Made by a program: the position numbers and the translations under genes. Below, piece after piece: positions 24,798 to 64,000 of a DNA stretch of 64,000 nucleotides. Under the pieces are notes generated by a model. The model saw nothing but the letters and a program-made list of their open reading frames with translations, made no database searches and had not been told where the DNA came from. Positions within the stretch are counted from its first letter, which is position 1. Every line of letters begins with the position of its first letter. The stretch is from an uncultured Candidatus Saccharibacteria bacterium. GTDB taxonomy: Bacteria > Patescibacteriota > Minisyncoccia > UBA6257 > UBA11618. The stretch covers positions 6,661 through 70,660 of the forward strand of contig CAYIII010000002.1 in NCBI GenBank assembly GCA_964363475.1. The letters run 5' to 3'.

Positions 24798-26198
24798 TTA
24801 GTTGTCAATATCATTATTGGGGATAACTTCTCCTCTCCAAAAATGTTCGCTAATTTTCTTAAAAAATCCTAGTTGTTTCAAGTCCAACTCCGGTCCTCTT
24901 CTTCCCATATAAATGTATACCTCTTTATTAGAAATTTCTTCTAAATTTACAATGGGATGACCTCCGTATCCCTTTAAAACATGAATATATCTTGTGTCAC
25001 TGCTTGCAACGGGAATACCATTCTCTGTTTTAGAGAATAATTTTATTTCTTCCAGCTCTTTATTATTGATTATTGGCTCCATAACCCAACTTTGATAAGC
25101 AATGTTACCTATTAAAACCACTAAAATAATTGTAAAAATTATCCTCATTAGCTTATTTGTCCAAAATATCTGCAGGAAATTAAGCAAAACTTCTCCGGCC
25201 AGAATAATAAATATGATGTCTAAAAGAATTATGAATCGGTTATGAAATATAAAATTAAGATATACAAAAGAAAAATTCACTAACGCGTAATAAAACAGAA
25301 AAGTAAATTTTTTATTGTAAACCAATCTTATAAATCCCAATATGGCGAATGGAAGATAAATCAGGGCTAAAAAGTTTTGATAAAAATCCAGTTGCACAAA
25401 ATTACCGGCTAATATTTCTGATATGCCTCTCGCGTAATCCCCTCTTAAATACTTTTCCGCGTAATAAACATAACCCCAAAATTTATCCCAGTTAATAAAA
25501 AATGATGATACTAAAACAGAAAAGAAACTAACTAACAAAAAAAATCTATTCTTTTCAAAAATAGAAAATAATAAAATTGTTAATAAAAACGGCAATAGCG
25601 TTAGCGGATGAAAGAATCCGATTAAGATTGCGATAGGAATTAATTGCCACGACTTTTTTTGTATTAAATTGGCGGCAAAAAGCGTAAGCGCTATCGCCGC
25701 CGTCATTTTTGCATAGAAAACCCAATAAACCAAGAATTGGGAAATTGATAGGGAAAAAATTAATAAACTGAAAAACGCCGCTTTCTCATTAAAATATTTT
25801 TTGGTGACTTCATAAATACCGAATCCCGCCAACAGATTAAGCAGAATATGTATTGTATAAATTACCGGTATTGAAACGTACGGTCTGAAATTTTCTATAT
25901 AGACACCGGCGTCGGCCGCCAGCGGAAATTCCCCCCAGCGAAAAAAAGGAATCAATCTTGATAACACTAATATTGAAAAAGGCAGCCAGAGCCAACTTTT
26001 ATTAATTTTTATTTCGCATTCTTTATAATTTAATCCCACCAGCCAATAGAGAAGCAGGGAAAATGTCCAAAAAATTAGTTTGGATGGCCAATTTAGAAGC
26101 GCAGGAGTTGAAAACCAGATGAGTAAAATATATCCTAAGAGAAAAATATGAGGAAAAAATTTTTGGTAACCGGAGGCGCTGGTTTCATTGGTTCTCAT
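24798..26198 (-). CDS. Polytopic membrane protein (about 12 TM; GT-C- or Wzy-like glycan-processing enzyme candidate)
   Basis: 466 aa, hydrophobic throughout, with a ~90-aa C-terminal soluble tail. No diagnostic motif recognised. The annotated start overlaps the divergent gene at 26148, so the true start is probably internal. Confidence 0.4.
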   Translation of the reverse strand: MRTNETSASGYQKFFPHIFLLGYILLIWFSTPALLNWPSKLIFWTFSLLLYWLVGLNYKECEIKINKSWLWLPFSILVLSRLIPFFRWGEFPLAADAGVYIENFRPYVSIPVIYTIHILLNLLAGFGIYEVTKKYFNEKAAFFSLLIFSLSISQFLVYWVFYAKMTAAIALTLFAANLIQKKSWQLIPIAILIGFFHPLTLLPFLLTILLFSIFEKNRFFLLVSFFSVLVSSFFINWDKFWGYVYYAEKYLRGDYARGISEILAGNFVQLDFYQNFLALIYLPFAILGFIRLVYNKKFTFLFYYALVNFSFVYLNFIFHNRFIILLDIIFIILAGEVLLNFLQIFWTNKLMRIIFTIILVVLIGNIAYQSWVMEPIINNKELEEIKLFSKTENGIPVASSDTRYIHVLKGYGGHPIVNLEEISNKEVYIYMGRRGPELDLKQLGFFKKISEHFWRGEVIPNNDIDN

Positions 26199-27086
26199 TT
26201 GTGTGAAAATTTATTGAATAAAGGCAACGAAGTTATTTGTTTTGATAATTTAAGCACAGGAAAACTAAAAAATATAGAGCATATAAAAAACAAAGTTATT
26301 TTTGTAAAAGGAGACGCCAACAGTTTTAATGATTTGGAAGTAATTTTCAAAGAAAATAAATTAAGCGGAGTTTTTCATCACGCGGCTATTGTGGGAGTTA
26401 AACGCACGATGGAGTCCCCCGTTGATGTTCTAAATGATATTGAGAGCGCGCGCAATATTTTAAATTTGGCCTTGAAATACGGCAAGCCCAAAATTATATT
26501 TGCTTCCAGTTCGGAAGTTTATGGTGAACCTGTGGAAATACCGGAATTGGAGAACGGCCACATTAACGCGCAAATACCTTATGCCGTAACGAAACTGTAT
26601 TGCGAAAAACTTATGTCGGCTTATTGGCAAAAATATAAACTTCCGACCTGTTCTTTAAGATTTTTTAATGTTTACGGCCCTCGCCAGGAGTCCAGCGATT
26701 ACGGTTTTGTTATCGGTATATTTATTAAGAGTGTCCTGCGGGGTATGTCGCCTGTAATATACGGAGACGGCACGCAAACGCGTGATTTTGTTTACATTGA
26801 CGATAATGTGGAGGCCTCCATTAAAGCGCTGGAATCGCGGACTAACGGAGAAGTAATAAATATTGGTACGGGAAGGCCGACTACAATTTTGGATTTAGCC
26901 GAAAAAATTATTGCTCTTTGCGGACTCAAGAAAAATTTAAAGCCAAAATTTATTAAACATAGGGATGATGTAAGGCATCGTTTTCCTGATATCGGTAAAA
27001 TGAAAAACTTATTAAATTTTACGTCCCGATATAATCTTAAAAGCGGTTTAGAAAAAACAATAAATTGGTATAAAAAAGAGATATGA
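26148..27086 (+). CDS. NAD-dependent nucleotide-sugar epimerase/dehydratase (UXS/GalE-like SDR)
   Basis: 312 aa; TGGAGFIGSHL Rossmann motif, YAVTK (YxxxK) catalytic motif. Confidence 0.8.
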   Translation: MRKKFLVTGGAGFIGSHLCENLLNKGNEVICFDNLSTGKLKNIEHIKNKVIFVKGDANSFNDLEVIFKENKLSGVFHHAAIVGVKRTMESPVDVLNDIESARNILNLALKYGKPKIIFASSSEVYGEPVEIPELENGHINAQIPYAVTKLYCEKLMSAYWQKYKLPTCSLRFFNVYGPRQESSDYGFVIGIFIKSVLRGMSPVIYGDGTQTRDFVYIDDNVEASIKALESRTNGEVINIGTGRPTTILDLAEKIIALCGLKKNLKPKFIKHRDDVRHRFPDIGKMKNLLNFTSRYNLKSGLEKTINWYKKEI

Positions 27087-27754
27087 AAGTTGCCTTGGTA
27101 ATTCCGGCTCATAACGAAGAAAAAAATATACAAAACGTAATTAAAAAATCAGCCAGTTACGTTGATTGGGTGATTATTGTTAATGATGGTTCAAGCGATG
27201 CCACTAAAAAGATATGCGAGGCAAATCGTTGCGATAAAAAAATAATATTGCTTAACCATAAAATTAATTTAGGCAAGGGCTCCGCTTTGAAGACGGGATG
27301 TGAGGCGGCCCGTAAATTAGGCAGTGATATTATTGTCACAATTGACGGCGACGGCCAACATTCCCCGGAGTATATTCCTAAAATTTTACAGTATATGGAG
27401 TCCAATAAATTGGATTTTATTTTTACCGTTCGTCAAGGTGGCGACAAGATGCCCTTGATTCGCTTTCTGGGCAATAGAACTTTAAATTTGACTGCCCAAT
27501 GTCTTTTTAATGTCAATTTAAAGGATATGTGGTGTGGTTTTAGAGCGTTTCGCGTCAGTTGCCTACCTAAAATCTCTTGGAGTAAAAGCGATTATTCCGG
27601 AGAAATCCAAATGGCGCTCAAAGTCGGGAAAAATAAAATTACTTACGGAGAATATGCCATTCCCACTATTTACAGCGACAATGTTAAGGGAGTTCATATT
27701 TTGCATGGGCTCAAGTTATTGTTGCAAATGATTGTGTGGCGTATAATGCTATAA
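27083..27754 (+). CDS. GT2 glycosyltransferase, polyprenol-phosphate sugar synthase-like (DPM1/ArnC/GtrB type)
   Basis: 223 aa; VIPAHNEEKNI...VNDGSSDAT...DGDGQH (DxD). Confidence 0.75.
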   Translation: MKVALVIPAHNEEKNIQNVIKKSASYVDWVIIVNDGSSDATKKICEANRCDKKIILLNHKINLGKGSALKTGCEAARKLGSDIIVTIDGDGQHSPEYIPKILQYMESNKLDFIFTVRQGGDKMPLIRFLGNRTLNLTAQCLFNVNLKDMWCGFRAFRVSCLPKISWSKSDYSGEIQMALKVGKNKITYGEYAIPTIYSDNVKGVHILHGLKLLLQMIVWRIML

Positions 27755-28098
27755 AAATGATTGGCATTCAACTTATAGGTGTTGTTGTCGGATTGGCGGC
27801 TATTCATCTTACTTATCTCTATTATAAAAGGTCTAATTTTACTAAAAAAGAATTGTTTTTTTGGGGATTTATTTGGCTAACCTTCGTTTTTGTTTCTGTT
27901 TTTCCCAGAAGCGTATCTCCTCTAGTCGGTTATTTGGGCTTGAGTAGGCCGATGGATTTAATAATGATTGTCGCTTTTGTTATTTTATTTATGCTTACCT
28001 TTCATAATTACATAGTCAATAGACAGCAAAAACAGAAATTAGAAAGATTAGTTAGAGAATTAGCGCTGAAGGATATAGATGGTAATGAGTTCCGTTAA
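27736..28098 (+). CDS. Small integral membrane protein associated with the GT2 gene (DUF2304/GtrA-like candidate)
   Basis: 120 aa, 3-4 TM helices, basic C-terminal tail; 4-nt-scale overlaps with its neighbours. Confidence 0.4.
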   Translation: MAYNAIKMIGIQLIGVVVGLAAIHLTYLYYKRSNFTKKELFFWGFIWLTFVFVSVFPRSVSPLVGYLGLSRPMDLIMIVAFVILFMLTFHNYIVNRQQKQKLERLVRELALKDIDGNEFR

Positions 28099-29227
28099 AA
28101 GTATTTTGATTTTTGCCGCTTTTTACCATCCCTATAAAGGCGGTTATGTTGAAAGCATTCATGGATTATCTGTCGGGCTTCTGCAAAGAGGATATGAAAT
28201 CACCATCGTTGCTTGTGGTGAGCAGGGTCGAACCACTTGTGGTGAGATAGATGGGATTAAATTGTATAATTTGTCTTGCTGGAATCCGGATTGGTTAAAT
28301 AATAGTTTTCCTATTCCTCACCCATACAGCGTTTATAAGGTATTAAAAATTCTATATAAAAAAAATTTTGATTATATTTTAACCAATACCCGTTTTTTTA
28401 TTTCAACATGGCTCGGCTTTATTTTTGGCAAATCGCTTGGATTGCCGGTGATTCACATAGAAAGAGGCGGCCAACATTCTTCAACCGGAAATTTGTTTAT
28501 TAATTTTGTGGCTAAAATAGTAGACCACACTATCGGTTTCATTATTGTCCGTTTTTCTAATGTTGTTGTCGGCGTGTCAGAAGCCACCTGTTCTTTTTTA
28601 TTGCATCTTGGGGCTGTTAAACCTGTCAAAATTTATAATGGAATTAGCGTGGCGCCTGAAAAAAATGTAATTTATAAAAATAATTTGCCGTATAAAATTA
28701 CTTTTGTTGGCCGCTTAATTTATGCGAAAGGACTAACTGAATTGGTTCAGGCAACTGCATCTCTTTCGGATAATATAATTGTGCAAATAATTGGAGGCGG
28801 CCCATATAAAAAAGATTTGGAGAAAATAATTAATGAACTAAAGCTCAATAAAAAAATTATTTTTTTAGGGGAATTGAATCACCAAGAAATAATAAATATT
28901 CTTTTAGAATCAACTATTTTTATTAATCCTTCATATTCAGAGGGCCTACCTCGCTGTGTATTAGAGGCTGGTTCTGTTGGGCTTCCCGTTATTGCCACTG
29001 ATGTGGGCGGCACCAAAGAAATAATTTGCAATGAAGAACACGGCATTTTAATAATTCCAAAAAATATTGAAGCGATTATCGTAAGTATTAATAAATTAAT
29101 CAATGATATTGACTTAAGAGAGAGATTGGGAAGAAATTTAAAAAATCGCGTCAAGTTAGTTTTTAACTGGGATGAAATTGTCTCAAGATATGAAAAAGAA
29201 TGTTTTAATACTCACAACATTTTATAA
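28079..29227 (+). CDS. GT4 (GT-B fold) glycosyltransferase
   Basis: 382 aa; EGLPRCVLEAGSVGLPVIATDVGG (the E-x7-E motif region). Confidence 0.8.
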   Translation: MVMSSVKSILIFAAFYHPYKGGYVESIHGLSVGLLQRGYEITIVACGEQGRTTCGEIDGIKLYNLSCWNPDWLNNSFPIPHPYSVYKVLKILYKKNFDYILTNTRFFISTWLGFIFGKSLGLPVIHIERGGQHSSTGNLFINFVAKIVDHTIGFIIVRFSNVVVGVSEATCSFLLHLGAVKPVKIYNGISVAPEKNVIYKNNLPYKITFVGRLIYAKGLTELVQATASLSDNIIVQIIGGGPYKKDLEKIINELKLNKKIIFLGELNHQEIINILLESTIFINPSYSEGLPRCVLEAGSVGLPVIATDVGGTKEIICNEEHGILIIPKNIEAIIVSINKLINDIDLRERLGRNLKNRVKLVFNWDEIVSRYEKECFNTHNIL

Positions 29228-30293
29228 GCCGTTTATTGGCGGGGCTGAAGTTTTTGTAGAAGAGATTACTAAAAGACTAAATAAAGATTTTAATTTTTTT
29301 ATTTTCACCACAAAAAACTTAAAGAATCTTCCCAGAAAAGAAATTATTGATAACACAGTGATTTATCGTCTGGGTTTTGGTTCTAAATACGATAAGTTTT
29401 TTTTTCCTTTTTTAGCGTTGATAAAAAGTTATTCCGTTAATTTTGATTTCTCATACGCTATTATGGCAAGTTACGCCGGCGCGGCGGCTCTCTTAATTAA
29501 ATTTTTTAGAAGAAAAGAATACATATTAAATATGCAAAGCGGAACTTTAGATACTAAAAATTATTTAAAAATATTAAAACTTTTTTGGTTTTTTTACAAA
29601 AAAATACACACCGAAGCATTATTTATTCATGTTATAAGCAATGCTCTTAAAGAAAGGGCCATAAAATTTGGCGTACCAATAAATAAAATATTTCTTATTC
29701 CTAACGGAATAGATTTGAGTAATTTCAAAGTATTGAGTTTGAATAGAAATTATTGGCAAATGATTTCGGTAGCCAATTTAAAAAAAGTAAAAGGACTGGA
29801 ATATCTTTTGCGTGCCATGCCAATAATAACGACCAAATTTCCTCAAGTAAAACTTTTATTAGTTGGTGATGGAGAGGAAAGAATTTTTTTGGAGAATTTA
29901 GTTAATGATTTAAAGATAGAAAATCATGTCCAATTTTTAGGTACGATTTGTCGCGATAAAATACCTGATATTTTGAATCATTCTAATATCTTTATCGGGC
30001 CTTCTTTAGCAGAGGGCCTGGGAATCGCTTTTTTGGAAGCCATGGCCTGCGGGGCTATTGTTATTGGCACAAAAGTTGGAGGGATTTGTGATATTATCAA
30101 AAATCATTATAATGGTCTATTAATAGAGCCCGCCAATTATATGGAGATTGCAAATAGCGTTTTATATCTATTAGAAAATAAAACCGTGTTGGAATCTTTA
30201 AGAAGCAATGCTTTAAAATTTGTTAAGGAATATGATTGGAATATTATTTCTTTTTCCATAAAATCATTGCTGGAAAAATATGAAAAAAGTTAG
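29172..30293 (+). CDS. GT4 glycosyltransferase
   Basis: 373 aa; EGLGIAFLEAMACGAIVIGTKVGG. Confidence 0.8.
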   Translation: MKLSQDMKKNVLILTTFYKPFIGGAEVFVEEITKRLNKDFNFFIFTTKNLKNLPRKEIIDNTVIYRLGFGSKYDKFFFPFLALIKSYSVNFDFSYAIMASYAGAAALLIKFFRRKEYILNMQSGTLDTKNYLKILKLFWFFYKKIHTEALFIHVISNALKERAIKFGVPINKIFLIPNGIDLSNFKVLSLNRNYWQMISVANLKKVKGLEYLLRAMPIITTKFPQVKLLLVGDGEERIFLENLVNDLKIENHVQFLGTICRDKIPDILNHSNIFIGPSLAEGLGIAFLEAMACGAIVIGTKVGGICDIIKNHYNGLLIEPANYMEIANSVLYLLENKTVLESLRSNALKFVKEYDWNIISFSIKSLLEKYEKS

Positions 30294-30894
30294 AAAAATA
30301 AAATCTTTAATTTTTTATACGGTTTCATTTTTAATGATAATTTTAATCTCTATATTTTTTTCGTCTTTAGTTACTTTAAATGTCATTTATTCTTGCTCTA
30401 ATCAAATAAGAAACGGTTATTTATCGGAATTTTTATGTGGTGATGTTGGGAAGACAGTAGAGGAAATTAAAGAAGATGAGTTTGTTTGGATAAAGCCAGA
30501 AGATATTTTACGAGCGTATTCTAATGATATTTTAGAGATAAATGAAAAAAGCAAAGCCGACAAATTAATTGATGGAGACATTAACACCGGCGCTTATCCC
30601 GGAAACAAGCAATTTGATTACATAGTTGAATTCATAGACGAGTACGAAATAAGTAGAATAGAGCTTATTTGGGGCGGCAGTGGAACGAGCAGACAACATA
30701 TCCAAGAATGGTCTTTAGAGTCCAAGTCCGGTTTATTGGGAGAATGGCAAGTTGTGGCTGGCGAGAAAGAATCTCTGGGCACGGAAAAAACGGTTTTAGA
30801 TATAAATATAAAAGCGGACTCTATAAAAATTCGTGCGAGTTCTCAAGATAATTGGATTGGAATTTTAGAGGTAAAAATCTTAAGAAAATCTTAG
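30280..30894 (+). CDS. Membrane-anchored protein with discoidin (F5/8 type C) carbohydrate-binding-like domain
   Basis: 204 aa; N-terminal TM; LIDGDINTGAYPGNKQFDYIVEFIDEYEISRIELIWGG...WQVVAG resembles the discoidin-domain consensus (xIDGdxxTxW...vDLg...i.xv.l.W). Confidence 0.45.
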   Translation: MKKVRKIKSLIFYTVSFLMIILISIFFSSLVTLNVIYSCSNQIRNGYLSEFLCGDVGKTVEEIKEDEFVWIKPEDILRAYSNDILEINEKSKADKLIDGDINTGAYPGNKQFDYIVEFIDEYEISRIELIWGGSGTSRQHIQEWSLESKSGLLGEWQVVAGEKESLGTEKTVLDINIKADSIKIRASSQDNWIGILEVKILRKS

Positions 30895-32968
30895 ATAAGG
30901 GAATAATCAGTAGGCAAGAAAAAAACAATAAAAATGGCATTAACGGCACGGAATGTCTTCGTTGGTCGACGGCAAAAAGGATAATAGTTGCGAGATGAGT
31001 CCATATAAATCCTCCGGTAATTAAATAATCCTTTCTTTTAGCCATTTTGGAAAATAAACTAGGTTTTAAAATAAATAAAATAGAGCAGACAAGGAATAGG
31101 ACAAACGGAATGGAGAGCCAAAGAGTTGCCTCGCTGGCACTAAAACCCAAAAAATAAAATAATCTTTGCGTTATTAATCTTAAATAGTCCAACGGCTGTT
31201 CTAATATCCACTGGATTGACGGAAAAGCTCTTGAGTCAAAAAAAATATTAGCAAAATTCATTACTGTATCGTAGTTTTTTTCTAAAGGCACATAATTATT
31301 AGGCACATGATTGGCTTGAACAAAATTAATTGTAACCGCTGGTTCTGATATTAAAATAAATTTACCGGTTAATAACCAATTTCTAGCCAAAAATGGTATT
31401 AATGGCAATATTATTCCTGTTACAAAAATAACAAACGGGACTAAAAAATATTTTTTAAAACTAAATATGAACCATAAAAATATAACCAGCATCATCGCCG
31501 CCATATTATTTCTCATTAGAATGCTTAATCCTAAAAATATTCCGGCCGTAAAAAAGTAAATCAAAGCCCCCCACTTTTTATTTTTATTGTCGCTAATTTT
31601 TCTTTCTGCTAGAAAAAGAAACAATATCACTAATGCTATTAGCAGTGTGCCAACAGGAAACATCTGAAACGCTTGTTTAAGCGTAATTGGATTGAGGGCA
31701 ATTAATACTAAAAGGGGTAAAAATATCAAAGAATCTTTTTTTATAAATAATTTACAAATCCAAACGACTATCAATGCTGCCAAAAGAACTGAAATTAATT
31801 GGAAAAATATTATAGGGAATAATGGCTCTCCCATTAGATAATGAGCAATAACTAGGGCGTGATAATATAAAATTTGATAATAATAACCGTAACCTGTTTC
31901 TAGGGCGCTCATACTCCAATTACCTGTTAATTGAACGTGTCTTGCAAATGTCTCATAAGTTAAAGGATCATTGCCGGTAATTAAAACATTAAAATATTCC
32001 GAATTTATTTGACCAAGTAATTTTTTTATCAATAAACCGAAACTCAATAAAAAAGACATAAAAATATAAAAACGCAAAGATAAGAACCATCCCTTCCAAT
32101 TTTCTTTATAAATAAGCAGGGTTAGAATTATTAAAATAAGTAAAAATATTATAATTTTTATAAAATTATCAATAAAATTTACGACATTATCACTATATAT
32201 TTGAAAATTTGAGTATTTTTGAGGGAAAAGACGGGTATTTAAAATATCAAGTTTTAAAAATTGCGTTGTTCCCTGTCCCCTGTGATAAATTAATTCTATC
32301 GGAACTAATTTATCAGTCGCATTTAATTCAATATGCTTATTATTTTTTTGAATGCTTAATTGGTCACTTCCTTGAACATCTAAAATTTTATCTTTATTTA
32401 TATATAATTCCGCCCTATTATCGGTAGATAAATCAATTTTTAAGGCACTTAAACCTGGATTATAAATATAACCTTTCCAGACAACGCTAATAGGAATAGT
32501 ATGGCTTCTTATATTGGGGTCATTAAATTTTGTATTATTATTTAAAAACCAAAACTGAAATGGTTTTTTATGGAAAGAATATCCAATACTTTCAAAATTA
32601 ATTTCCTCATCAATTCTTGTGCCGTCTATTTTGGGATTTATGAATTCGGTGGATTTCTGCAAAACCCCGTTTTCAATTGACGGTTGATAGTAATAACCCA
32701 TTAATCCTTCCGGTAAAGAAATAATTCCGAGCAATATTTTTATTATTATAATCAGCAGTATTATATAACTTGCTGGTCGCAATATTAAAACGTGTTTTTT
32801 TTGAAAATTTTTAAACTGAGGCAAGAAAAAAATAAAAAAAGCAGCTAATAAAACTAAAAAAAACAATTCATGAAATTGGCTTAATGGAATTCCGTCAAAC
32901 CAGCCATTTCTGCCAGAGATAATAAAGAATAAAACACATAAAAGAAAAATCAGCACATTGATAGTCAA
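30821..32968 (-). CDS. Large polytopic membrane protein with PA14-like extracytoplasmic insert (GT-C superfamily, GT39/GT83-like candidate)
   Basis: 715 aa; 2 TM, then a ~180-aa soluble insert (IDGTRIDEEINFESIGYSF...VVWKGYIYNPGLSALKIDLSTDNRAELYINKDKIL, PA14-like), then more than 10 TM helices. Confidence 0.45.
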   Translation of the reverse strand: MTINVLIFLLCVLFFIISGRNGWFDGIPLSQFHELFFLVLLAAFFIFFLPQFKNFQKKHVLILRPASYIILLIIIIKILLGIISLPEGLMGYYYQPSIENGVLQKSTEFINPKIDGTRIDEEINFESIGYSFHKKPFQFWFLNNNTKFNDPNIRSHTIPISVVWKGYIYNPGLSALKIDLSTDNRAELYINKDKILDVQGSDQLSIQKNNKHIELNATDKLVPIELIYHRGQGTTQFLKLDILNTRLFPQKYSNFQIYSDNVVNFIDNFIKIIIFLLILIILTLLIYKENWKGWFLSLRFYIFMSFLLSFGLLIKKLLGQINSEYFNVLITGNDPLTYETFARHVQLTGNWSMSALETGYGYYYQILYYHALVIAHYLMGEPLFPIIFFQLISVLLAALIVVWICKLFIKKDSLIFLPLLVLIALNPITLKQAFQMFPVGTLLIALVILFLFLAERKISDNKNKKWGALIYFFTAGIFLGLSILMRNNMAAMMLVIFLWFIFSFKKYFLVPFVIFVTGIILPLIPFLARNWLLTGKFILISEPAVTINFVQANHVPNNYVPLEKNYDTVMNFANIFFDSRAFPSIQWILEQPLDYLRLITQRLFYFLGFSASEATLWLSIPFVLFLVCSILFILKPSLFSKMAKRKDYLITGGFIWTHLATIILFAVDQRRHSVPLMPFLLFFSCLLIIPLSKIFLRFLPLKFQSNYLENSHEFL

Positions 32969-41771: not shown

Positions 41772-41789
41772 TGGTGTTATTAAATAATA

Positions 41790-44541: not shown

Positions 44542-44545
44542 TAAA

Positions 44546-46996: not shown

Positions 46997-47065
46997 TTGC
47001 GCGCCACTCCTTTCAAGGAACTTCTTGCTAGGAGCACTGTAAGGTATTACAATCTACTGGTCAAT

Positions 47066-56268: not shown

Positions 56269-57125
56269 AATTAGTTAATATAGGGGTTCCCGCTTTGAAT
56301 GAAGAAAGATTTCTTTCTCAGACACTGGACTCATTATTGGCTCAAGATTATTCCAATCTGGAAATTATTATTTGTGATAACGCTTCTACTGATAAGACCG
56401 AAGAAATATCTTGTAAATATGCGGGAAAAGATAGTCGCATTAAATATTTTAAAAATAAAGAACGATTATCTGGGCCAGAAAATTGGAATAGAGCCTTTCA
56501 ATTATCATCAAGTAAATATTTCATGTGGGCTAGTGGGCATGATTTATATGATAAAAGTTTTGTTTCTTCTTGTATGGAAATTTTAGAGAAGGAAGAAAAT
56601 GTGACTCTGGCTTATTCTTTAACTTATTCAATAGATGAATATAACAATAAATTACAAATTATACCGCAATACCTTGACACTAGAACATTAAATTTAATAT
56701 CAAGATTTAATAAGTTTATATTGGCTTCCAATAATTCTAGTTGTATACTTACTGGTTTAATAAGGTCAGAATCAATTAGAAAAACTCATTTAATGCAAAA
56801 TACATTGGCGGCAGACACGCTTTTTTTAAGTGAATTATCTTTATTGAGCTATTTTGCTCAAACACAAAAACCATTATATTATCGTCGAGAAATAAGACCA
56901 CATGAAACTCCCATTATGACTTCAAAAAGAAGAATTAAGGATATTTTTAGAAATAAAAAAAAATATCCAGCAATATTTTATTTATTTCATTTAATATATA
57001 AATATCTTATAACGATATGGCGATCTTCAATAAATTTCGGCTATAAAATAATTCTTTCTTTTTTTATTTTTTTTGATTTAGGAATTTTATATTTTAAAAC
57101 AATACTAAAATATGTGAAAAAATGA
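56265..57125 (+). CDS. GT2 glycosyltransferase, tandem paralog 4 of 4
   Basis: 286 aa; NIGVPALNEERFLSQTLDSLLAQDYSNLEIIICDNASTDKTE. Confidence 0.75.
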   Translation: MKLVNIGVPALNEERFLSQTLDSLLAQDYSNLEIIICDNASTDKTEEISCKYAGKDSRIKYFKNKERLSGPENWNRAFQLSSSKYFMWASGHDLYDKSFVSSCMEILEKEENVTLAYSLTYSIDEYNNKLQIIPQYLDTRTLNLISRFNKFILASNNSSCILTGLIRSESIRKTHLMQNTLAADTLFLSELSLLSYFAQTQKPLYYRREIRPHETPIMTSKRRIKDIFRNKKKYPAIFYLFHLIYKYLITIWRSSINFGYKIILSFFIFFDLGILYFKTILKYVKK

Positions 57126-58282
57126 AGATTGCTTATATAATTAACGCCAGATTACCAACGGAAAAAGCGCATGGTTACCAAATTGTAAAAATGTGCGAAG
57201 CCTTCGCTATTCAAGGCGCTGATGTTTTATTGTGCCATCCGTTTCGCTTTCAAAATAAAGATTTACAAAATATGAATGTATTTGATTTTTACAAAGTTAA
57301 AAAAAACTTTAAAGTTATAACCACAGCGAATCTAGATTTGCTTCCGTTATCAGATAATAAAATATTATTTATTTTACAAACATTGCTTTGGGGAGCTTTT
57401 GCTGTATTTAAATTAAGAAAAGAAGAAATTGATATTTACTATACAAGAGACGCTTTAACAGTGTTTTGGATGTCAATTTTTGGTTTCCCGATTGTTTACG
57501 AAGAACATGTAATTCATAGTGGAGCAGGACAATTTTTATTAAGAATGGTTTCTCAAAAATCTTCCCTTAAATTAGTTGTAGTTTTAACAAATTTTATAAA
57601 AGATAATTTTATTAAGCTTGGATTTTCTCCAAATAAAGTAATTGTTGCCTCTGATGGTGTAGATTTGGCAATGTTTAAAAATTTGCCAGATAAAATTAAT
57701 TGCAGAAAGAAATTAGAATTGCCGGAATTTGTATTTATAGTGGGATATGTGGGCAGATTTAAGGTTTTTGGCAATCAAGAAAAAGGAATTCCCCAGCTAA
57801 TAGAAGCGATATCTATATTAAAAAATAAAAATATTTTATTACTATTGGTTGGCGGGCCACAAAACGCCGTAAATGATTATCTAAATTTAGCCAAAAAATT
57901 AAATGTCCGAAATATAAAAATTGTTAATCAAGTTCCGGTGTCAGAAGTCCCCTACTGGATGAGAGCTTGTGATGCGGTCACTATTCCGTGGACATGGACT
58001 AAATTTTCTGCTTATTACACTTCTCCGCTTAAGCTTTTTGAATACATGGCATCTAAAACGCCGATCATTGCCAGTAATTTACCATCATTAAGAGAAATTC
58101 TTAATGAGAAAAATTCAATTTTGGTTAAGCCGGGAGATTCTATGGATTTAGCCGATGGAATTGAAAAAGTTTTAAACAATAAAAATTTAGCCAATCAAAT
58201 ATCAGAACAAGCTTATAGGGATGTGCAAAATTACACTTGGGAAAACAGAGCTAGGAAGATATTATCATTTTTATGCATATAG
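57122..58282 (+). CDS. GT4-like (GT-B) glycosyltransferase
   Basis: 386 aa; C-terminal domain LKLFEYMASKTPIIASNLPS. Confidence 0.65.
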   Translation: MKIAYIINARLPTEKAHGYQIVKMCEAFAIQGADVLLCHPFRFQNKDLQNMNVFDFYKVKKNFKVITTANLDLLPLSDNKILFILQTLLWGAFAVFKLRKEEIDIYYTRDALTVFWMSIFGFPIVYEEHVIHSGAGQFLLRMVSQKSSLKLVVVLTNFIKDNFIKLGFSPNKVIVASDGVDLAMFKNLPDKINCRKKLELPEFVFIVGYVGRFKVFGNQEKGIPQLIEAISILKNKNILLLLVGGPQNAVNDYLNLAKKLNVRNIKIVNQVPVSEVPYWMRACDAVTIPWTWTKFSAYYTSPLKLFEYMASKTPIIASNLPSLREILNEKNSILVKPGDSMDLADGIEKVLNNKNLANQISEQAYRDVQNYTWENRARKILSFLCI

Positions 58283-59400
58283 TGCTTATTAGCAGTACTA
58301 ATGAAAATAATTCCGGCTGGGGCACAATAACACACAACCATTGTCTTGCGCTGTTAAGTAAAAAACAGTCTTTTATATTGCTCCTTCCTAAAAAGGCCAA
58401 AAGAATAGTTACCGCATATTCAAATAATATAGAATATATTTTACCTAACCTGCCTCTTAGTTTTAATTCTATTAAAGGAATTTTACAATTACCTCTTTTA
58501 TATAAAAAAATAAAAATTAATTATCAAAAACCCGCTGTTATCCATTCATTATTAGACTTCCCGTATGCCTTGCTTGGATGGCATATGGCTCGTAGAAATA
58601 AATTACCATTTATTTTTACTGCTCACGGAACATATTCTGTAAAACCTTTTTTTAATTTATTAGACAAAATTTTATTTACACCAGCATATAAAAATGCTAA
58701 TTCAATAATTGCAGTAAGCCAATTTACATCTAAAAATATAACGAAAGTTTCTGCTTATGAGAGGAAAATTAATATTATTAATAATCCCATTGCTTATACA
58801 AAAACAAAGATTCATCAAAATTATAATTTTTTAGGTTTTGCGCCTCCTAACTTTAAAATTATTTTAAGCGTTGGCCCTTTAAAGCCAAGAAAGGGTCACG
58901 AAATATTAATAAAAGCTTTTAACGAAGTTAATAGAATCATCGCTGATTCATGTTTAATTATTATAGGATCTGGTGATAATAATTTTTATAAAAATTTGAT
59001 TGATAATGATAAAAAACATTTAGTTTTTTTTATTCCTCAAGCTTCTTCTGAAGAATTGGCGTTTTGTTTTCAGCATTGCAGTGTTTTTGCAATGCTGCCA
59101 AAATACATTGACCATGAATTTGAGGGTTATGGATTGGTCTACTTAGAAGCCGGTTTATACAAGAAACCGGTTGTCGGCACTTTTTCAGGAGGAGTACCGG
59201 AAGCTGTAATTAATGGAAAAACTGGCATTTTGGTGTCAGAAAATGACGAAAAATCAACAGCGACGGCAATTATCAAAATATTACAAAATAAATATCTGGC
59301 AGAAAGCTTGGGTAATAATGGTTATAAATTGGCCAGGCAAAGAAATTGGGATGATTATATAAATAAAATTATAAAAATTTATGAATCTGTTTGTAGCTAG
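58273..59400 (+). CDS. GT4 glycosyltransferase
   Basis: 375 aa; GYGLVYLEAGLYKKPVVGTFSGGVPE. Confidence 0.75.
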   Translation: MHIVLISSTNENNSGWGTITHNHCLALLSKKQSFILLLPKKAKRIVTAYSNNIEYILPNLPLSFNSIKGILQLPLLYKKIKINYQKPAVIHSLLDFPYALLGWHMARRNKLPFIFTAHGTYSVKPFFNLLDKILFTPAYKNANSIIAVSQFTSKNITKVSAYERKINIINNPIAYTKTKIHQNYNFLGFAPPNFKIILSVGPLKPRKGHEILIKAFNEVNRIIADSCLIIIGSGDNNFYKNLIDNDKKHLVFFIPQASSEELAFCFQHCSVFAMLPKYIDHEFEGYGLVYLEAGLYKKPVVGTFSGGVPEAVINGKTGILVSENDEKSTATAIIKILQNKYLAESLGNNGYKLARQRNWDDYINKIIKIYESVCS

Positions 59401-60760
59401 CTTTCACTTTCTATCTTCAAGGAACTTTTTTACCACTGATGTGTTTAGCGCGCTAAAACAAAATAAAAAAATTAACCTAATAGTATTTGTTCCTAAAAGT
59501 AAATTAGATCTTTTACGAAATAATTATGAACATGAAAATGTCAAATTAGTTGGCATAGACGAACAACTTATTTTAGGCAGAAACTTTTCTAAATTTAAAT
59601 GGTTGAATTTTTTTTTAATCCCGACGCGCGCAGTAAGATTTAGAGCTCAGGAAAAATGGAATAGAGAAAGAACTTTTACGGGTCTTATAGAATTAGGGTT
59701 ATCTTATTTTTTGTCATTATTTTTATCAAAATTTAAGTTTGCAAGAAATATAGTAAGATATTTAGATAAAAAATTTGATAGATCGCCAATGTTGTTAGAA
59801 TATTTTAACAAATATAGACCAGAATATATTCTAGTAACTGACGTTTTTAATAATGCAGACATCTGTTTTCTAAAAGAAGCAGAGGTCAATAATGTGTTTT
59901 CTATGGGATTAGTTCGTTCTTGGGACAACACCACTACAAAGGGATTAATGAGGATAATTACTAATAAATTAATCGTTAACAATGAAATCATAAAAAATGA
60001 GGCCGTAAAATTTCATGATGTAAATCCTAGAGATATTTTTATTAGTGGAATTCCTCAATTTGATATATATTTTCGCAACGCATATAACACGCGTGAAGAG
60101 TTTTTTAAAGAAATTGGAGCCGATATTAATAAAAGATTAATATTATTTGCGCCCGCCGGATCTATTTTGTCAGATACAGATTGGCAGTTATGCCAAATAT
60201 TAAAAGATGGCTTGCGTAAAAAAATATTACCGAGCAACATTCAATTCTTAATTAGAAAACATCCTTTAGGGCATCCAGGGTTTTTAGAAAAATTTATAAC
60301 TGATAAAAATTTTTTAATAGAATGGCCCGGCACAAAACCCGAAAATAGCGACCATCCTAAAATAACAGAATTAATTAATAAGGACCAGAAACATTTAGTT
60401 AATTCTTTACACTATTCTGAAATGATAATTTATGTTAATTCTACGATTGGCATTGACTCTCTACCTTTTAATAAGCCACAGATAATGATTGAGTTTGATG
60501 GATGGGAAAAGAAACGTTATATTGAAAGCGTTAAACATTATCACGACGAGGAGCATATGCAGAAATATTTGCAAACAGGAGCAGTAAAAATAGCGAAAAC
60601 ACCAGAAGAGTTATTGCTTCTAATTAATATTTTCCTTAATAATCCCAAAATAGATGAAGAAAAAAGAAAGACGGCTATTAAAGAACAATTATATTATTCT
60701 GATGACCAATGTGGCAAAAGAGTTGCGAATTTCGTTTTAAAACAAATCAATAATTTATGA
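59381..60760 (+). CDS. GT-B-like transferase, possibly a TagB/TagF-type glycosyl/glycerophosphotransferase
   Basis: 459 aa; C-terminal MIIYVNSTIGIDSLPFNKPQIMIEFD resembles the LITDYSS...kP motif of CDP-glycerol glycerophosphotransferases; assignment is weak. Confidence 0.35.
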   Translation: MNLFVASFHFLSSRNFFTTDVFSALKQNKKINLIVFVPKSKLDLLRNNYEHENVKLVGIDEQLILGRNFSKFKWLNFFLIPTRAVRFRAQEKWNRERTFTGLIELGLSYFLSLFLSKFKFARNIVRYLDKKFDRSPMLLEYFNKYRPEYILVTDVFNNADICFLKEAEVNNVFSMGLVRSWDNTTTKGLMRIITNKLIVNNEIIKNEAVKFHDVNPRDIFISGIPQFDIYFRNAYNTREEFFKEIGADINKRLILFAPAGSILSDTDWQLCQILKDGLRKKILPSNIQFLIRKHPLGHPGFLEKFITDKNFLIEWPGTKPENSDHPKITELINKDQKHLVNSLHYSEMIIYVNSTIGIDSLPFNKPQIMIEFDGWEKKRYIESVKHYHDEEHMQKYLQTGAVKIAKTPEELLLLINIFLNNPKIDEEKRKTAIKEQLYYSDDQCGKRVANFVLKQINNL

Positions 60761-61749
60761 AAAAAAATAAAGTAGCTTTAATAACGGGAATTAATGGACA
60801 AGACGGTTCTTATTTAGCGGAATTATTATTATTAAAGAATTATGAAGTGCACGGCATTATTCGCAGGTCTTCAGTAATAAATACCGGACTCATAAAACAT
60901 ATAATGCCAAAATTATTTTTGCATTACGGCGACTTAATAGACGCCAATACAATAAGAAAATTAGTTTATAAAATCAAACCGAATGAAATCTACAATTTAG
61001 CGGCGCAATCACAAGTAAGAGTAAGTTTTGATATTCCCGAATATACCCTCAACGTTACTGGTTTGGGGCCGACAAGAATATTGGAAGCTATTAAGGATTT
61101 TGAGGACGGTGGCAACGAGAAAATAAAATTTTACCAAGCCAGTTCCAGCGAGATGTTTGGCAATACTTCGCCTCCGCAAAATGAAAAATCTTTATTTTTC
61201 CCGAGAAGCCCGTACGGATGCGCAAAACTCTTGGGTTATCATTCAACTTGTAATTATAGAGACGGATTTAATATTTTTGCGGTAAATGGGATTCTTTTTA
61301 ATCATGAATCCCCTCGTCGCGGCGAAGAATTCGTTACCAGAAAAATAACTTCCGGCGTAGCCAAAATTAAGGCCGGTCTAATGAAAAAAATTTCTTTGGG
61401 TAATTTAAGCGCCAAACGCGACTGGGGTTACGCTCCTGAATATATGGAGGCCGTTTGGTTGATGATGCAACAAGATAAGCCGGATGATTATGTTATTGGT
61501 ACTGGAGAAAGCCACTCAATTGAAGAATTTCTAGATGAATCATTTAAGGCGGTTGGCATTGATAAGTGGAAAAAATATGTTGAAATTAATTCGTCTTATT
61601 TCAGACCGACGGATGTTCATAATTTAGTTGCTGATTATAGTAAAGCCCAAAAAAAACTTGGCTGGTGTCCCAAAGTTAAATTTCATGATTTAGTAAAAAT
61701 TATGGTGGAAGCTGATTTAAAACATATAAAAAATGATAAAACTGGTTAA
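60757..61749 (+). CDS. gmd: GDP-mannose 4,6-dehydratase
   Basis: 330 aa; ALITGINGQDGSYLAELLLLKNYEVHGIIRRSS...LHYGDLID...NLAAQSQV...FNHESPRRG: canonical Gmd motifs. Confidence 0.9.
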   Translation: MKKNKVALITGINGQDGSYLAELLLLKNYEVHGIIRRSSVINTGLIKHIMPKLFLHYGDLIDANTIRKLVYKIKPNEIYNLAAQSQVRVSFDIPEYTLNVTGLGPTRILEAIKDFEDGGNEKIKFYQASSSEMFGNTSPPQNEKSLFFPRSPYGCAKLLGYHSTCNYRDGFNIFAVNGILFNHESPRRGEEFVTRKITSGVAKIKAGLMKKISLGNLSAKRDWGYAPEYMEAVWLMMQQDKPDDYVIGTGESHSIEEFLDESFKAVGIDKWKKYVEINSSYFRPTDVHNLVADYSKAQKKLGWCPKVKFHDLVKIMVEADLKHIKNDKTG

Positions 61750-62899
61750 ATCTACATTTTATAAAGAAAAAGAAACTAAAAAAAAGCTAATTAATTTTAT
61801 CAAGAAATCCGCCATTCTTAGCATGAATAGCGAGTGCCGCAAATTTGAAGATGCATTTGCTGAAAAGCAAGGCAGAAGACATGCGGTTTTTGTTAGTAGT
61901 GGCAGTAGCGCTAATTTAGTTTTAATACAATCACTCCTTAATTTAAATTGGCTTAGAAAGAATTATGTTATTGGCGTATCAGCACTAACCTGGCCAACAA
62001 ATATAATGCCACTTATTCAATTGGGGTTAAAAGTCCTATTCTTAGATTGCGAAATGAAAACTATTAATGTTTCACCGGATATATTTAAAAGAAAAATTAA
62101 AAATTTAGACGGCCTTTTTTTAACTAATGTTTTGGGATTTAGCGATCATATAGAAACAATAGCTAGTTTGTGTAAAAAAAATGATATTATTTTTTTGGAA
62201 GATAATTGTGAATCTTTGGGTTCTAAAGTTAACGGTAAGTTATTAGGTAATTTTGGATTGGCTGCCACCTTTTCTTTCTTTGTCGGTCATCATCTGTCTA
62301 CCATTGAAGGCGGTATGATTGTTACAGATAATTCAGAATTATATCATATGCTTTTAAAGGTTCGGGCGCATGGCTGGGACAGAGATTTGCCAAAAGAAGA
62401 AATGTATAATATCAGATTAGTTCATAATATTAATAATTTTTTTTCTCGTTATACTTTTTATGATTTGGCTTATAATGCTAGACCGACAGAAATAAGCGGT
62501 TTTTTGGGCAATAATCAACTGCGCTACTGGGACGAAATAGTTAATAAACGCTTTAATAATTTCAAAAAGTTTCATGACGCGCAAAGAAAAAATGATGATT
62601 TTATTTTATTAGATATGAATCATATGGATTTGGTATCCAATTTCGCAATGCCAGTTATTTGTAAAAATAAGGATTGTTTTGAGAAATATCAAAAGAGATT
62701 TGAAAAAAATAATGTAGAAATTAGACCTATTATAGCTGGTAATATTATGGAACAACCGTTTTATTTAAAATATAAAGATAAAAATGGCATTAATTGTAAA
62801 AATACCCGACTTATTCATGAAAACGGATTTTACTTTGGCAATAATCCGGAATTAACAACAAAAGAAATTAAATTTTTATGCAATTTGCTCAAAAAATGA
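61733..62899 (+). CDS. DegT/DnrJ/EryC1-family PMP-dependent NDP-4-keto-6-deoxy-sugar 3-dehydratase (ColD/E1-like; His replaces the Schiff-base Lys)
   Basis: 388 aa; at the position of the conserved SF..K....GEGG lysine the sequence reads FSFFVGHHLSTIEGG, as I recall it for the ColD/DdhC dehydratases; adjacent to gmd. Confidence 0.65.
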   Translation: MIKLVKSTFYKEKETKKKLINFIKKSAILSMNSECRKFEDAFAEKQGRRHAVFVSSGSSANLVLIQSLLNLNWLRKNYVIGVSALTWPTNIMPLIQLGLKVLFLDCEMKTINVSPDIFKRKIKNLDGLFLTNVLGFSDHIETIASLCKKNDIIFLEDNCESLGSKVNGKLLGNFGLAATFSFFVGHHLSTIEGGMIVTDNSELYHMLLKVRAHGWDRDLPKEEMYNIRLVHNINNFFSRYTFYDLAYNARPTEISGFLGNNQLRYWDEIVNKRFNNFKKFHDAQRKNDDFILLDMNHMDLVSNFAMPVICKNKDCFEKYQKRFEKNNVEIRPIIAGNIMEQPFYLKYKDKNGINCKNTRLIHENGFYFGNNPELTTKEIKFLCNLLKK

Positions 62900-63840
62900 T
62901 TAATTTGAAAAATAAAAAAATTTTATTGACAGGCGGAGGTGGATTTTTGGGAAATTATGTGTTTGAAGCATTAATAAAGAGGAGGGTCAAGAAAGAAAAT
63001 ATATTTATCCCCCGCTCACAGGAATATGATCTAAGAAAGAGAAGTGTATGTAATCAGGTGGTGCGTAATAAAGATATTATTATACATCTAGCCGCCCTTG
63101 TTGGAGGCATAGGTTTCAACCAAAAAAATCCCGCATCAGTTTTTTATGATAATGCTTCAATGGCGCTTAATTTAATTGATGCCGCTTATAAATCTGGTAT
63201 TGAAAAGTTTGTTGGTATTGGAAGCGTGTGTTCTTATCCTAAATTTTCAAAAATACCATTTGTGGAAACAGACTTGTGGCTTGGTTATCCGGAAGAAACG
63301 AATGCTCCCTATGGTTTAGCTAAAAAAATGATGCTGGTTCAATCACAGGCCTATCATAAGCAGTATGGATTTAATGCTATTCATTTATTAATGATTAATT
63401 TATATGGACCTGGAGATAATTTTGACCCGCAGAGTTCTCATGTTGTGCCAGCTTTAATTAAAAAAATAGTTAATGCTAAAAAAAATAAGTTGCCATTTAT
63501 AGAAATATGGGGAAGCGGTAAAGCTACTAGAGAGTTTTTGTATGTTGAAGATGCGGCGAAGGGAATTATATTGGCCACAGAAAAATATGATAAATCAGAT
63601 CCGGTTAATATTGGATGCAACGCAGAAACTTCTATAAAAGATTTAGTTGGTTTAATTTGTAAAATAATTAAATATAAAGGCGAAGTTCGTTGGGATAAAA
63701 CTAAACCCGACGGACAACCAAGAAGGATGTTAAATGCTGACTTAGCGAAAAAAGAATTCGGGTTTATCAGCAAAACTCAATTAAATAAAGGTTTAAAGAA
63801 AACAATTAATTGGTATATAAAATCTAAATCTCTTGTCTAA
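62878..63840 (+). CDS. GDP-L-fucose synthase / GDP-L-colitose synthase-like (Fcl/ColC family SDR)
   Basis: 320 aa; ILLTGGGGFLG Rossmann, YGLAK (YxxxK); follows gmd and the 3-dehydratase. Confidence 0.7.
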   Translation: MQFAQKMINLKNKKILLTGGGGFLGNYVFEALIKRRVKKENIFIPRSQEYDLRKRSVCNQVVRNKDIIIHLAALVGGIGFNQKNPASVFYDNASMALNLIDAAYKSGIEKFVGIGSVCSYPKFSKIPFVETDLWLGYPEETNAPYGLAKKMMLVQSQAYHKQYGFNAIHLLMINLYGPGDNFDPQSSHVVPALIKKIVNAKKNKLPFIEIWGSGKATREFLYVEDAAKGIILATEKYDKSDPVNIGCNAETSIKDLVGLICKIIKYKGEVRWDKTKPDGQPRRMLNADLAKKEFGFISKTQLNKGLKKTINWYIKSKSLV

Positions 63841-64000
63841 ATATTTTATTTTCTTTTAATAACATTTGTTCCGAACGTAATAATGGAAGAGAGTGATAAT
63901 CATTATTGCCTAAATAGGCTGCCCACCAAGAAAAGGTGGATCCGCCACCTATTATCGATTGAGCATTTTTAAGCATCCAAAAATCAAAAATATAATCTGG
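63823..64000 (-). CDS. Partial CDS (C-terminal fragment): GT11 alpha-1,2-fucosyltransferase-like glycosyltransferase
   Basis: Minus-strand translation ...PDYIFDFWMLKNAQSIIGGGSTFSWWAAYLGNNDYHSL...; (S)TFSWWAAYL is, as I recall it, the C-terminal signature of family GT11 fucosyltransferases. Stop overlaps the end of the Fcl-like gene by about 17 nt. Confidence 0.4.

Follow-up and report, generated by a model that had tools for sequence, protein, structure and literature searches.

A 53-kb low-GC surface-glycan island with a Wzx-family flippase in an uncultured groundwater member of the Patescibacteria

The 64,000-nucleotide stretch of DNA analyzed here (contig CAYIII010000002.1; the whole stretch is called the window below) passes at about 24 kb from housekeeping genes into a dense block of glycan-biosynthesis genes. 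The G+C fraction (GC) is 0.38-0.41 up to ~24 kb, and these left 24 kb encode bacterial housekeeping functions: an FtsI-type penicillin-binding protein (PBP), MraW, MraZ, rplJ, rplL, a sigma-70 factor, TrmD, RNase III, NusB, DnaE, a class II aminoacyl-tRNA synthetase and GatB. From there to the window end GC is 0.28-0.36, and 39 contiguous open reading frames (ORFs) occupy positions 24,798-63,840 at a coding density of 98%. As described below, the feature seen in the window is probably the left three quarters of an inherited low-GC island of 53.2 kb for surface-glycan biosynthesis, which includes a Wzx/MOP-family flippase homolog.

Extent and gene content of the island

All 39 ORFs between 24,798 and 63,840 were covered by Pfam, NCBIfam and PDB searches. 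The hidden Markov model (HMM) scans give seven GT4 and six GT2 glycosyltransferases (GTs) and six S-adenosylmethionine (SAM) methyltransferases, in near-exact agreement with the counts in the original prediction, which was made from the sequence without database searches; its description of the locus as near-unidirectional also holds, with 35 of the 39 genes on the plus strand (window genes below are on the plus strand unless marked (-)). The 4-nt ATGA overlaps that it stressed are present, yet their prevalence was overstated: 4-nt overlaps occur at 10 of 31 same-strand junctions (9 ATGA and 1 TTGA), and overlaps of any kind at 24 of 31, with the longest ORF called in each case. The window part of the island further contains seven short-chain dehydrogenase/reductase (SDR) nucleotide-sugar enzymes, RmlC, a GHMP kinase, a nucleotidyltransferase, a three-domain thiamine diphosphate (ThDP) enzyme, a DegT-family enzyme, a TagF-like protein, a DUF2304 protein, a weak DUF2334 match, a single-pass F5/8-type-C (discoidin) protein, a shikimate-kinase-family kinase, one soluble unknown and two polytopic membrane proteins, neither of which has a significant Pfam match.

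An exact-sequence look-up of the last complete window gene identified a 36.9-kb ENA contig (L001) from Hainich groundwater (well H51, 0.1-µm fraction), which differs from the window by one mismatch over 11,123 nt. Chaining of overlapping contigs via the flippase protein cluster gave a composite of 80,969 nt in which window coordinates are kept; contigs L008 and L009 supply the Wzx homolog, a 604-aa membrane protein and an F5/8C protein, followed by rplK-nusG-secE-gyrB. In this composite the island ends at ~78.0 kb (window-equivalent), where GC is back to 0.39-0.42 and the rplK, nusG, secE and gyrB genes begin. The complete island is 53.2 kb long and has 53 genes, with a GC of 0.316 vs 0.391 in the flanks; it encodes ~16 cytoplasmic glycosyltransferases, at least eight methyltransferases, one Wzx/MOP-family flippase and three polytopic GT-C-type proteins. 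The original view of a 38-kb island reaching the window edge was therefore right about gene content and too short in extent. Misassembly or chimerism was rejected because independent contigs span all junctions: assemblies made independently from three replicate samples bridge the middle of the island and both of its boundaries, and the GT4 gene at 37678-38754 is found on five independent contigs.

The Wzx homolog (73062-74330 (-)) lies inside the same low-GC island, starting ~9.1 kb past the window edge, and matches PF01943 with an E value of 2.7e-18 (66.8 bits, cut-off 28.2) and PF13440 with 8.8e-15. Within the window, a screen of all ORFs of at least 100 aa for ABC_tran, Bac_transf, Glycos_transf_4, Polysacc_synt and Wzy_C gave no match to an ABC ATPase, phosphoglycosyltransferase (PGT), Wzx or Wzy model. 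The claim that the locus has no canonical export gene is thus true of the window and untrue of the island: the search of the flank beyond 64 kb, which the original prediction had itself named as the place where it could fail, found Wzx, though no Wzy or PGT, and a flippase seemed to be absent only because the window ends before reaching it.

The island belongs to an uncultured bacterium of the Patescibacteria (candidate phyla radiation, CPR) from groundwater, and the nearest named genome is a metagenome-assembled genome of Candidatus Saccharibacteria. A 99% identical copy of the flippase is listed at NCBI under the source 'Patescibacteria group bacterium' and the name 'oligosaccharide flippase family protein', and the sole match among GTDB representatives (88% amino-acid identity) lies on a contig of an uncultured Candidatus Saccharibacteria bacterium. 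An origin from a phage or other mobile element was rejected: there is no integrase, and DnaE, GatB, an aminoacyl-tRNA synthetase, a PBP and ribosomal proteins are encoded on the same contigs.

The GT4 genes of the window are at 28079-29227 (Glycos_transf_1, 1.7e-40), 29172-30293 (3.7e-42), 36596-37681 (7.8e-39), 37678-38754 (6.7e-21), 38751-40940 (7.6e-35 at aa 203-355), 57122-58282 (5.7e-25) and 58273-59400 (1.9e-30). The protein encoded at 38751 is 729 aa long, with a C-terminal half of ~350 aa that has no significant Pfam match and holds 'DGAGD' and 'CDDD' motifs; these suggest a second, GT-A-like catalytic domain. Four of the GT2 genes are clustered (52381-53238, 1.7e-29; 53242-54129, 9.3e-30; 54107-54991, 1.3e-28; 56265-57125, 3e-25), and the other two are discussed below together with the lipid-linked sugars. 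SAM methyltransferases are encoded at 35293-35991 (Methyltransf_23, 1.5e-18), 35988-36590 (Methyltransf_11, 6.7e-10), 50488-51636 (Methyltransf_23, 3.8e-22) and 54973-56268 (Methyltransf_31, 1.3e-10), and at 51633-52379 there is a member of the CmcI/rhamnosyl O-methyltransferase family (RMNT_CmcI, 2.2e-82; NCBIfam rhamnosyl O-methyltransferase 79 bits, below cut-off); the sixth is the C-methyltransferase described below. A TagB/TagF-like protein of the CDP-glycerol glycerophosphotransferase family (59381-60760; Glyphos_transf 4.1e-9, 36 bits, cut-off 22), a weak DUF2334-like protein (34607-35296; 3.4e-5, below cut-off) and a 242-aa soluble protein with no Pfam or NCBIfam match of note (46268-46996 (-)) are also present. 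The shikimate-kinase-family P-loop kinase (41238-41870 (-); Pfam SKI 1.3e-32, all NCBIfam models below cut-off; 177 aa in contig L019) could act on a sugar or polyol. It is antisense in the middle of the island and adjoins the only sizeable intergenic gap (297 nt), where an 81-aa ORF is called in other assemblies and near which one public contig starts.

Past the window edge, the composite carries a GT2 (64647-65423 (-)), a PseF-like cytidylyltransferase (65420-66139 (-)), a B12/radical-SAM enzyme (66195-67946 (-)), an adh_short protein (68008-68859), a NeuB-like synthase (68941-69915), a methyltransferase (69958-70896) and three ORFs of 364, 295 and 72 aa with marginal Pfam matches only (Methyltransf_24 below cut-off, PhyH at threshold). 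These are followed by the Wzx gene and by a transmembrane (TM)-anchored methyltransferase (74302-75573 (-)), which has a 4-TM N-terminal anchor and sits between the Wzx and 604-aa genes, overlapping both; in the relative L006 (4366-4812) just the 148-aa TM part of this protein is left. The 604-aa GT-C-like protein (75570-77384 (-), ~15 TM segments) and a single-pass F5/8C protein (77390-78001 (-)) complete the island.

Both boundaries have features of their own. Directly left of the island (21022-24777) are genes for two He_PIG/Big_9 Ig-like surface proteins and a peptidoglycan (PG)-binding protein, the latter TM-anchored, with a Gly run, a Ser/Thr-rich stretch and a PG_binding_1 domain; they occupy the same position in the sister contig L015. 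The He_PIG/Big_9 and PG_binding_1 proteins are candidate glycan acceptors or envelope anchors. The secE-nusG-rplKAJL cluster, which is usually contiguous, is split by ~72 kb that include the whole glycan island: rplJ and rplL are at 4608-5500 (-) in the window, where no rplA is seen, and secE-nusG-rplK lie past the right end of the island (composite from 78,007, (-)).

Predicted sugars and membrane enzymes

The original prediction spoke of branched or C-methylated, dideoxy and heavily methylated sugars, and the gene content bears this out at the level of prediction, with a Zn-finger C-methyltransferase, a ThDP enzyme paired with an SDR, and a trio of Gmd, ColD-like and Fcl-like enzymes. The trio begins with GDP-mannose 4,6-dehydratase, Gmd (60757-61749; Pfam 5.5e-124; TIGR01472 457.5 bits, above the cut-off of 415), and continues with a ColD-like GDP-4-keto-6-deoxymannose 3-dehydratase (61733-62899; DegT 2.8e-54) and an Fcl/ColC-like GDP-sugar epimerase-reductase (62878-63840; Epimerase 1.2e-50; GDP-L-fucose synthase 271 bits, cut-off 500). 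The best PDB match of the gene after gmd is ColD (2gms/3gr9, E 7e-64), vs 5e-35 for E1 dehydrase, and an 'HH' in the protein aligns with the 'HH' of ColD, a PMP-dependent 3-dehydratase in which His takes the place of the PLP lysine. Convergent with the trio is a gene of the GT11 (fucosyl-/colitosyl-transferase) family, of which the window edge leaves the 3' end (63824-64000 (-)) and which is found in L001 at 10947-11783 (PF01531). On the best reading of these sequences, the product of the trio would be a GDP-colitose-type 3,6-dideoxyhexose; because the Fcl-like protein scores below its cut-off, GDP-fucose or another 6-deoxy or 3,6-dideoxy sugar may be made instead.

As for a dTDP-L-rhamnose set, RmlC (dTDP-4-dehydrorhamnose 3,5-epimerase, 43030-43557; Pfam 1.2e-62; TIGR01221 179.8 bits) passes its cut-off of 155.75, an RmlD-like 4-ketoreductase (33699-34625; RmlD_sub_bind 8e-55) reaches 187 bits with TIGR01214 vs a cut-off of 224, the dehydratase-like SDRs are below cut-off, and there is no clear RmlA in the island. 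The SDRs include an NDP-sugar epimerase/dehydratase (26148-27086; Epimerase 8e-61; best NCBIfam matches GalE and RmlB, both below cut-off), a 4,6-dehydratase-like enzyme (44546-45538; GDP_Man_Dehyd 4e-79; Gmd 164 and RmlB 145 bits, below cut-off) and an epimerase/reductase (46970-47941; Epimerase 3.9e-37). Directly before rmlC is a methyltransferase of the NDP-hexose C-methyltransferase type (41790-43028; Methyltransf_14 1e-36; Methyltransf_13 Zn-binding domain 2.8e-18), and together with RmlC and the RmlD-like protein it suggests a C-methyl 6-deoxyhexose. An acyl-branched sugar is a candidate product of the ThDP carboligase of the acetolactate-synthase family (47835-49631; TPP_enzyme N/M/C; TIGR00118 400 bits, cut-off 538) and the SDR reductase that overlaps it by an ATGA (49628-50479; Epimerase 4.3e-36), by analogy with YerE and YerF, which form the acyl-branched sugar yersiniose A.

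Two further kinds of sugar are indicated. The GHMP sugar kinase (43561-44541; GHMP_kinases_N/C; HddA 156 bits), the sugar-1-phosphate nucleotidyltransferase (45525-46271; NTP_transferase 3.9e-15; HddC 105 bits) and the dehydratase-like SDR between them are closest to HddA/HddC, with both the HddA and the HddC scores below cut-off. In the distant relative L017 (16813-19049), the gene after that for a GHMP kinase encodes a fusion of a nucleotidyltransferase and a HAD phosphatase. The arrangement agrees with a heptose-type HddA/GmhB/HddC module and is a clue to what the window genes at 43561-46271 may do. The NeuB-like synthase (243 bits, cut-off 400) and the PseF-like cytidylyltransferase (163 bits, cut-off 206) suggest a nonulosonic-type acid, and no PseB/C/H/G or LegB/C/H/G enzymes for the preceding steps were recognized in the island.

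Lipid-linked monosaccharides are suggested by two short GT2s that resemble polyprenyl-phosphate sugar synthases, as originally proposed; their best NCBIfam matches are PpgS, AglJ and ArnC, all below the curated cut-offs. One (33014-33712; Pfam GT2 6e-23; ArnC 61 bits, cut-off 529) is like ArnC and dolichyl-phosphate-hexose synthases. The other (27083-27754; Pfam GT2 2.5e-26; PpgS 93 bits, cut-off 370) is like PpgS, GacI and AglJ, and its gene overlaps that of a 3-TM DUF2304 protein of the GacJ/Rv3632 kind (27736-28098; PF10066 5e-23, 81.8 bits, cut-off 25.5). In Streptococcus pyogenes, GacI makes GlcNAc-P-undecaprenol and is stimulated by the DUF2304 protein GacJ; flipping of the lipid-linked sugar by the Wzx-family protein GacK has only been proposed, and the GT-C enzyme GacL moves the sugar to the polymer. 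Rv3632 likewise stimulates PpgS. By this analogy the island's DUF2304 protein would be a putative activating partner of the GT2 at 27083, and all four GacI/J/K/L component types are present in the island, that is, a short GT2, a DUF2304 protein, a Wzx-family protein and a GT-C enzyme.

At least one of the polytopic proteins has a GT-C fold, in line with the GT-C membrane enzymes of the original prediction. This is the 413-aa protein at the left end of the island (24798-26039 (-), from a GTG at 26039; the longest ORF extends to 26198 and would encode 466 aa), whose 413-aa start in public gene calls gives a divergent intergenic region of 108 nt. Its homologs form 225 clusters, and among 70 aligned members the PMT_2 model matches 22, EpsG matches 10 and STT3 matches none, while the family profile reaches the AglB N-terminus with an E value of 6e-4. 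Its AlphaFold2 (AF2) model is of high quality (pLDDT 94.7, pTM 0.92), and the best structural matches are STT3, PglB and AglB, all of the GT-C fold. In the alignment of the 70 sequences, D43 in external loop 1 is an almost invariant acidic residue, and a C-terminal domain of ~90 aa resembles the globular domain of AglB-S2. Judging from the model, the protein is a GT-C enzyme and neither a Wzy nor a WaaL. No WWD is seen on inspection of the sequence, which offers 'PWLxGY' at best as a family consensus; the protein is without WWDYG and without a large external domain, and its filing as an STT3-family oligosaccharyltransferase was therefore rejected.

The other two polytopic proteins are less well placed; in single-sequence PDB searches none of the three gave a match. 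The 604-aa protein aligns with the 413-aa family in hhalign (probability 91.8%, E 7.5e-7) and is a probable relative of it. The 715-aa protein (30821-32968 (-)), with ~17 hydrophobic segments, belongs to a very small family, 6 clusters in a set of 5.8 billion proteins. One of its external loops carries a PA14-like domain (~aa 145-248; Pfam PA14 E 0.08; PDB profile matches to PA14 domains only), and residues 368-536 of the protein give two independent sub-threshold matches, to PMT_2 (E 1e-3) and to the putative glycosyltransferase LA_3751/LA_3752 (E 1.2e-7). The AF2 model from 6 homologs is poor (pLDDT 42). Because the hhalign comparison of its family with the GT-C family is not significant (probability 1.8%), the GT-C assignment rests on the two sub-threshold HMM matches, and we describe the protein as weakly GT-C-like. 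Both the 715-aa and the 604-aa protein adjoin a single-pass discoidin-domain protein, in the window a protein with one TM segment (30280-30894; F5_F8_type_C 1.7e-7); the two discoidin proteins are paralogs (32% identity, E 5e-28), and the pairing with a polytopic protein recurs in L015 (1-2550) and L017 (10001-12666). Lectin-type modules beside or inside GT-C enzymes may suggest that the acceptors of these enzymes are glycans. In the replicate assembly L011 (3339-5706), where the DNA is 99.9% identical, the gene calls give 626 aa for the 715-aa protein and 186 aa for its F5/8C partner, which suggests small indel or frameshift microdiversity in the gene pair 30280-32968.

Assembly, export and alternative readings

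A model in three steps accounts most economically for the ~16 soluble glycosyltransferases and the single flippase. A long, heavily methylated oligosaccharide would be built on the cytoplasmic side of the membrane, with polyprenyl (pyro)phosphate as its carrier; the Wzx homolog would flip it; and outside the membrane the GT-C enzymes would decorate or transfer it, using as donors polyprenyl-P-monosaccharides from the GacI/GacJ-like pair. The initiating phosphoglycosyltransferase and the finishing ligase or polymerase would be encoded elsewhere in the genome or among the unassigned proteins.

Several observations weigh against this reading. PGT, Wzy, Wzz/polysaccharide co-polymerase (PCP), LCP ligase, WaaL and ABC transporters went undetected throughout the 53 kb, and because of this the pathway as drawn is without its first and last steps. 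No PGT (PF02397, PF00953) is found in the 64-kb window or the 17-kb extension, no Wzz/PCP (PF02706) in any scanned ORF, and no Wzm/Wzt (ABC_tran, ABC2_membrane) in window or extension. No island ORF has a Pfam match to Wzy (PF04932, PF14897), although a divergent Wzy can evade HMMs; the sole sub-threshold EpsG match (E 0.005) is to the protein modelled as a GT-C fold. The NCBIfam equivalog cut-offs are passed by RmlC and Gmd only, and most sugar assignments fall below them. The Wzx homolog scores only 17-30 bits with the NCBIfam models for specific flippases, and its place in an operon with a GT-C-like gene is compatible with a GacK-type role. The missing PGT, which had been taken as a sign of a non-classical locus, does not have this meaning: an initiating PGT outside the cluster is common, E. 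coli O-antigen clusters depending on a wecA located in the enterobacterial common antigen (ECA) cluster, and its absence from the locus is not unusual. Without Wzy, Wzz and LCP three options are open, namely a single long unit, en-bloc transfer of the oligosaccharyltransferase kind, and divergent, undetected enzymes.

The first alternative gives the Wzx homolog the role of a GacK/CflA/AglR-type flippase, which would move polyprenyl-P-monosaccharides for the three GT-C enzymes. In that case the main oligosaccharide has no canonical exporter in the island, and the product is made largely outside the membrane from single lipid-linked sugars, or the exporter is encoded elsewhere. All four GacI/J/K/L-type parts are indeed at hand, the Wzx gene shares a minus-strand block with the gene for the 604-aa GT-C-like protein and has an overlap with the gene next to it, and the island is without Wzy, Wzz and PGT. 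We nevertheless think this unlikely: with sixteen soluble GT4, GT2 and GT11 enzymes, a long oligosaccharide is to be expected in the cytoplasm, which needs a flippase or ABC exporter, and Wzx is the sole candidate in 53 kb; PF01943 members mostly flip polyprenyl-PP-oligosaccharides; and the role of GacK is itself just proposed. The original scheme of lipid-linked monosaccharides and GT-C enzymes accordingly fails in its export claim and is viable for part of the pathway, with flipping of the GacK type.

Somewhat less credible, in our judgement, is general protein glycosylation, in which the 413-aa STT3/AglB-like GT-C protein would be an oligosaccharyltransferase that, after flipping by Wzx, transfers the glycan en bloc to an S-layer protein, to pilins or to the He_PIG and PG-binding neighbours. 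This would explain the absence of Wzy, Wzz and LCP, Wzx without Wzy being the pattern of en-bloc glycosylation systems, and it agrees with the match of the family profile to the AglB N-terminus and with the surface-protein genes that border the island. The 413-aa protein, however, lacks WWDYG and a large periplasmic domain, having 'PWLxGY' at best; its family is matched by models of the ArnT/PMT type (PMT_2) in 22 of 70 members and by STT3 models in none; GT-C folds are too similar for the rank of a match to assign the acceptor; and no target protein was identified.

The conservation of the island among relatives bears on its origin. In the sister contig L015 the left boundary and the left 13 kb of the island are present at 81% nucleotide identity, vs 80% for housekeeping genes, while the 34.6-37.6 kb block has moved away from its site, from which the GT2-RmlD segment is missing as well. 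Relatives whose flippases are 57% identical share the order DegT, SDR, GT11, GT2, CMP transferase, radical-SAM enzyme, SDR, NeuB, methyltransferase, two further genes, Wzx and, after an interval, the 604-aa protein, and the more distant relatives L006 and L017 have similar islands, that of L017 surrounding a homolog of the 715-aa protein. Because identity to L015 equals that of the housekeeping flank, the left part is read as inherited and not as a recent insertion, and from these comparisons the island appears to be an inherited, slowly rearranging feature of the lineage. Recent horizontal acquisition of the island as a strain-variable cassette (a 'flexible genomic island') would explain a GC 7.5 points under the flanks, the differences in gene order from L015 and the breaks of several assemblies within the island, but is very improbable in view of the housekeeping-like identity on the left, the synteny of the right part at 57% Wzx identity, the lack of any integrase, transposase or flanking tRNA, and the low GC that is usual in surface-glycan loci.

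The predicted glycan or glycans would carry branched, dideoxy and nonulosonic-type sugars. CPR genomes are typically ~1 Mb, and in a genome of that general size a 53-kb island would be roughly 5%, a heavy investment in exotic methylated glycan(s) by bacteria whose surface chemistry is little known and whose surface is the contact site for hosts and phages. A bolder proposal, which we hold to be rather doubtful, is a Wzx-dependent, Wzy-less glycosylation system of CPR bacteria in which the ~413-aa STT3/AglB-like GT-C protein acts as oligosaccharyltransferase or ligase alongside lineage-restricted GT-C-like proteins with lectin modules (a PA14 insert or a discoidin partner); if true, it would be a previously undescribed architecture for placing complex glycans on the surfaces of episymbiotic bacteria. 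A literature search of incomplete coverage found no description of glycan islands or Wzx genes in Patescibacteria, CPR or Saccharibacteria. Candidates for experiment from the locus are the GacI/GacJ-like pair, the well-modelled mini GT-C, and the PA14-bearing membrane protein with its discoidin partner.

Comparison with known systems

Parts of the island have counterparts in characterized pathways. The trio and the GT11 gene are like the E. coli O55 GDP-L-colitose pathway (Gmd, ColD and ColC with a GT11 colitosyltransferase), unlike which the island has no ManB/ManC and an Fcl-like protein that is below cut-off. The pair formed by the ThDP enzyme of the acetolactate-synthase family and the NAD(P)-dependent SDR directly after it, set among NDP-sugar genes, is like YerE and YerF in family and gene order. 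With STT3, PglB and AglB the 413-aa protein shares the GT-C fold, the loop-1 acidic residue and the small AglB-S2-like C-terminal domain, but it has about half their length, lacks WWDYG, is matched by no STT3 sequence model, and has relatives that match PMT_2 and EpsG.

The closest parallels to the lipid-linked sugar module are GacI/GacJ/GacK/GacL of the group A carbohydrate side chain and PpgS/Rv3632/Rv3779 of M. tuberculosis, which have the same order of GT2 and then DUF2304 gene and which the locus also resembles in its Wzx-family and GT-C-fold genes. In contrast to these systems, the parts in the island are spread over 50 kb, with two synthase-like GT2s and three GT-C-like proteins, and no ABC exporter for a backbone is encoded in the island.

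As a whole, the locus compares with the Wzx-dependent clusters for O antigens, capsules and cell-wall heteropolysaccharides, in which nucleotide-sugar genes, many GT2 and GT4 genes and a PF01943 flippase likewise form one block with a GC below that of the genome, tight operons and an initiating transferase encoded elsewhere. It differs from them in that no Wzy, Wzz/PCP, WaaL or LCP was detected, in its unusually large size (53 genes, ~16 glycosyltransferases), in its three GT-C-type proteins and in its CPR host. The island's size, the three GT-C-type proteins, the rare PA14-bearing family with its discoidin partners and the lack of Wzy, Wzz, LCP and PGT are what is unusual here; the locus itself combines a Wzx-containing cluster for surface glycans with a decoration module like GacIJKL, and both are of known kinds.

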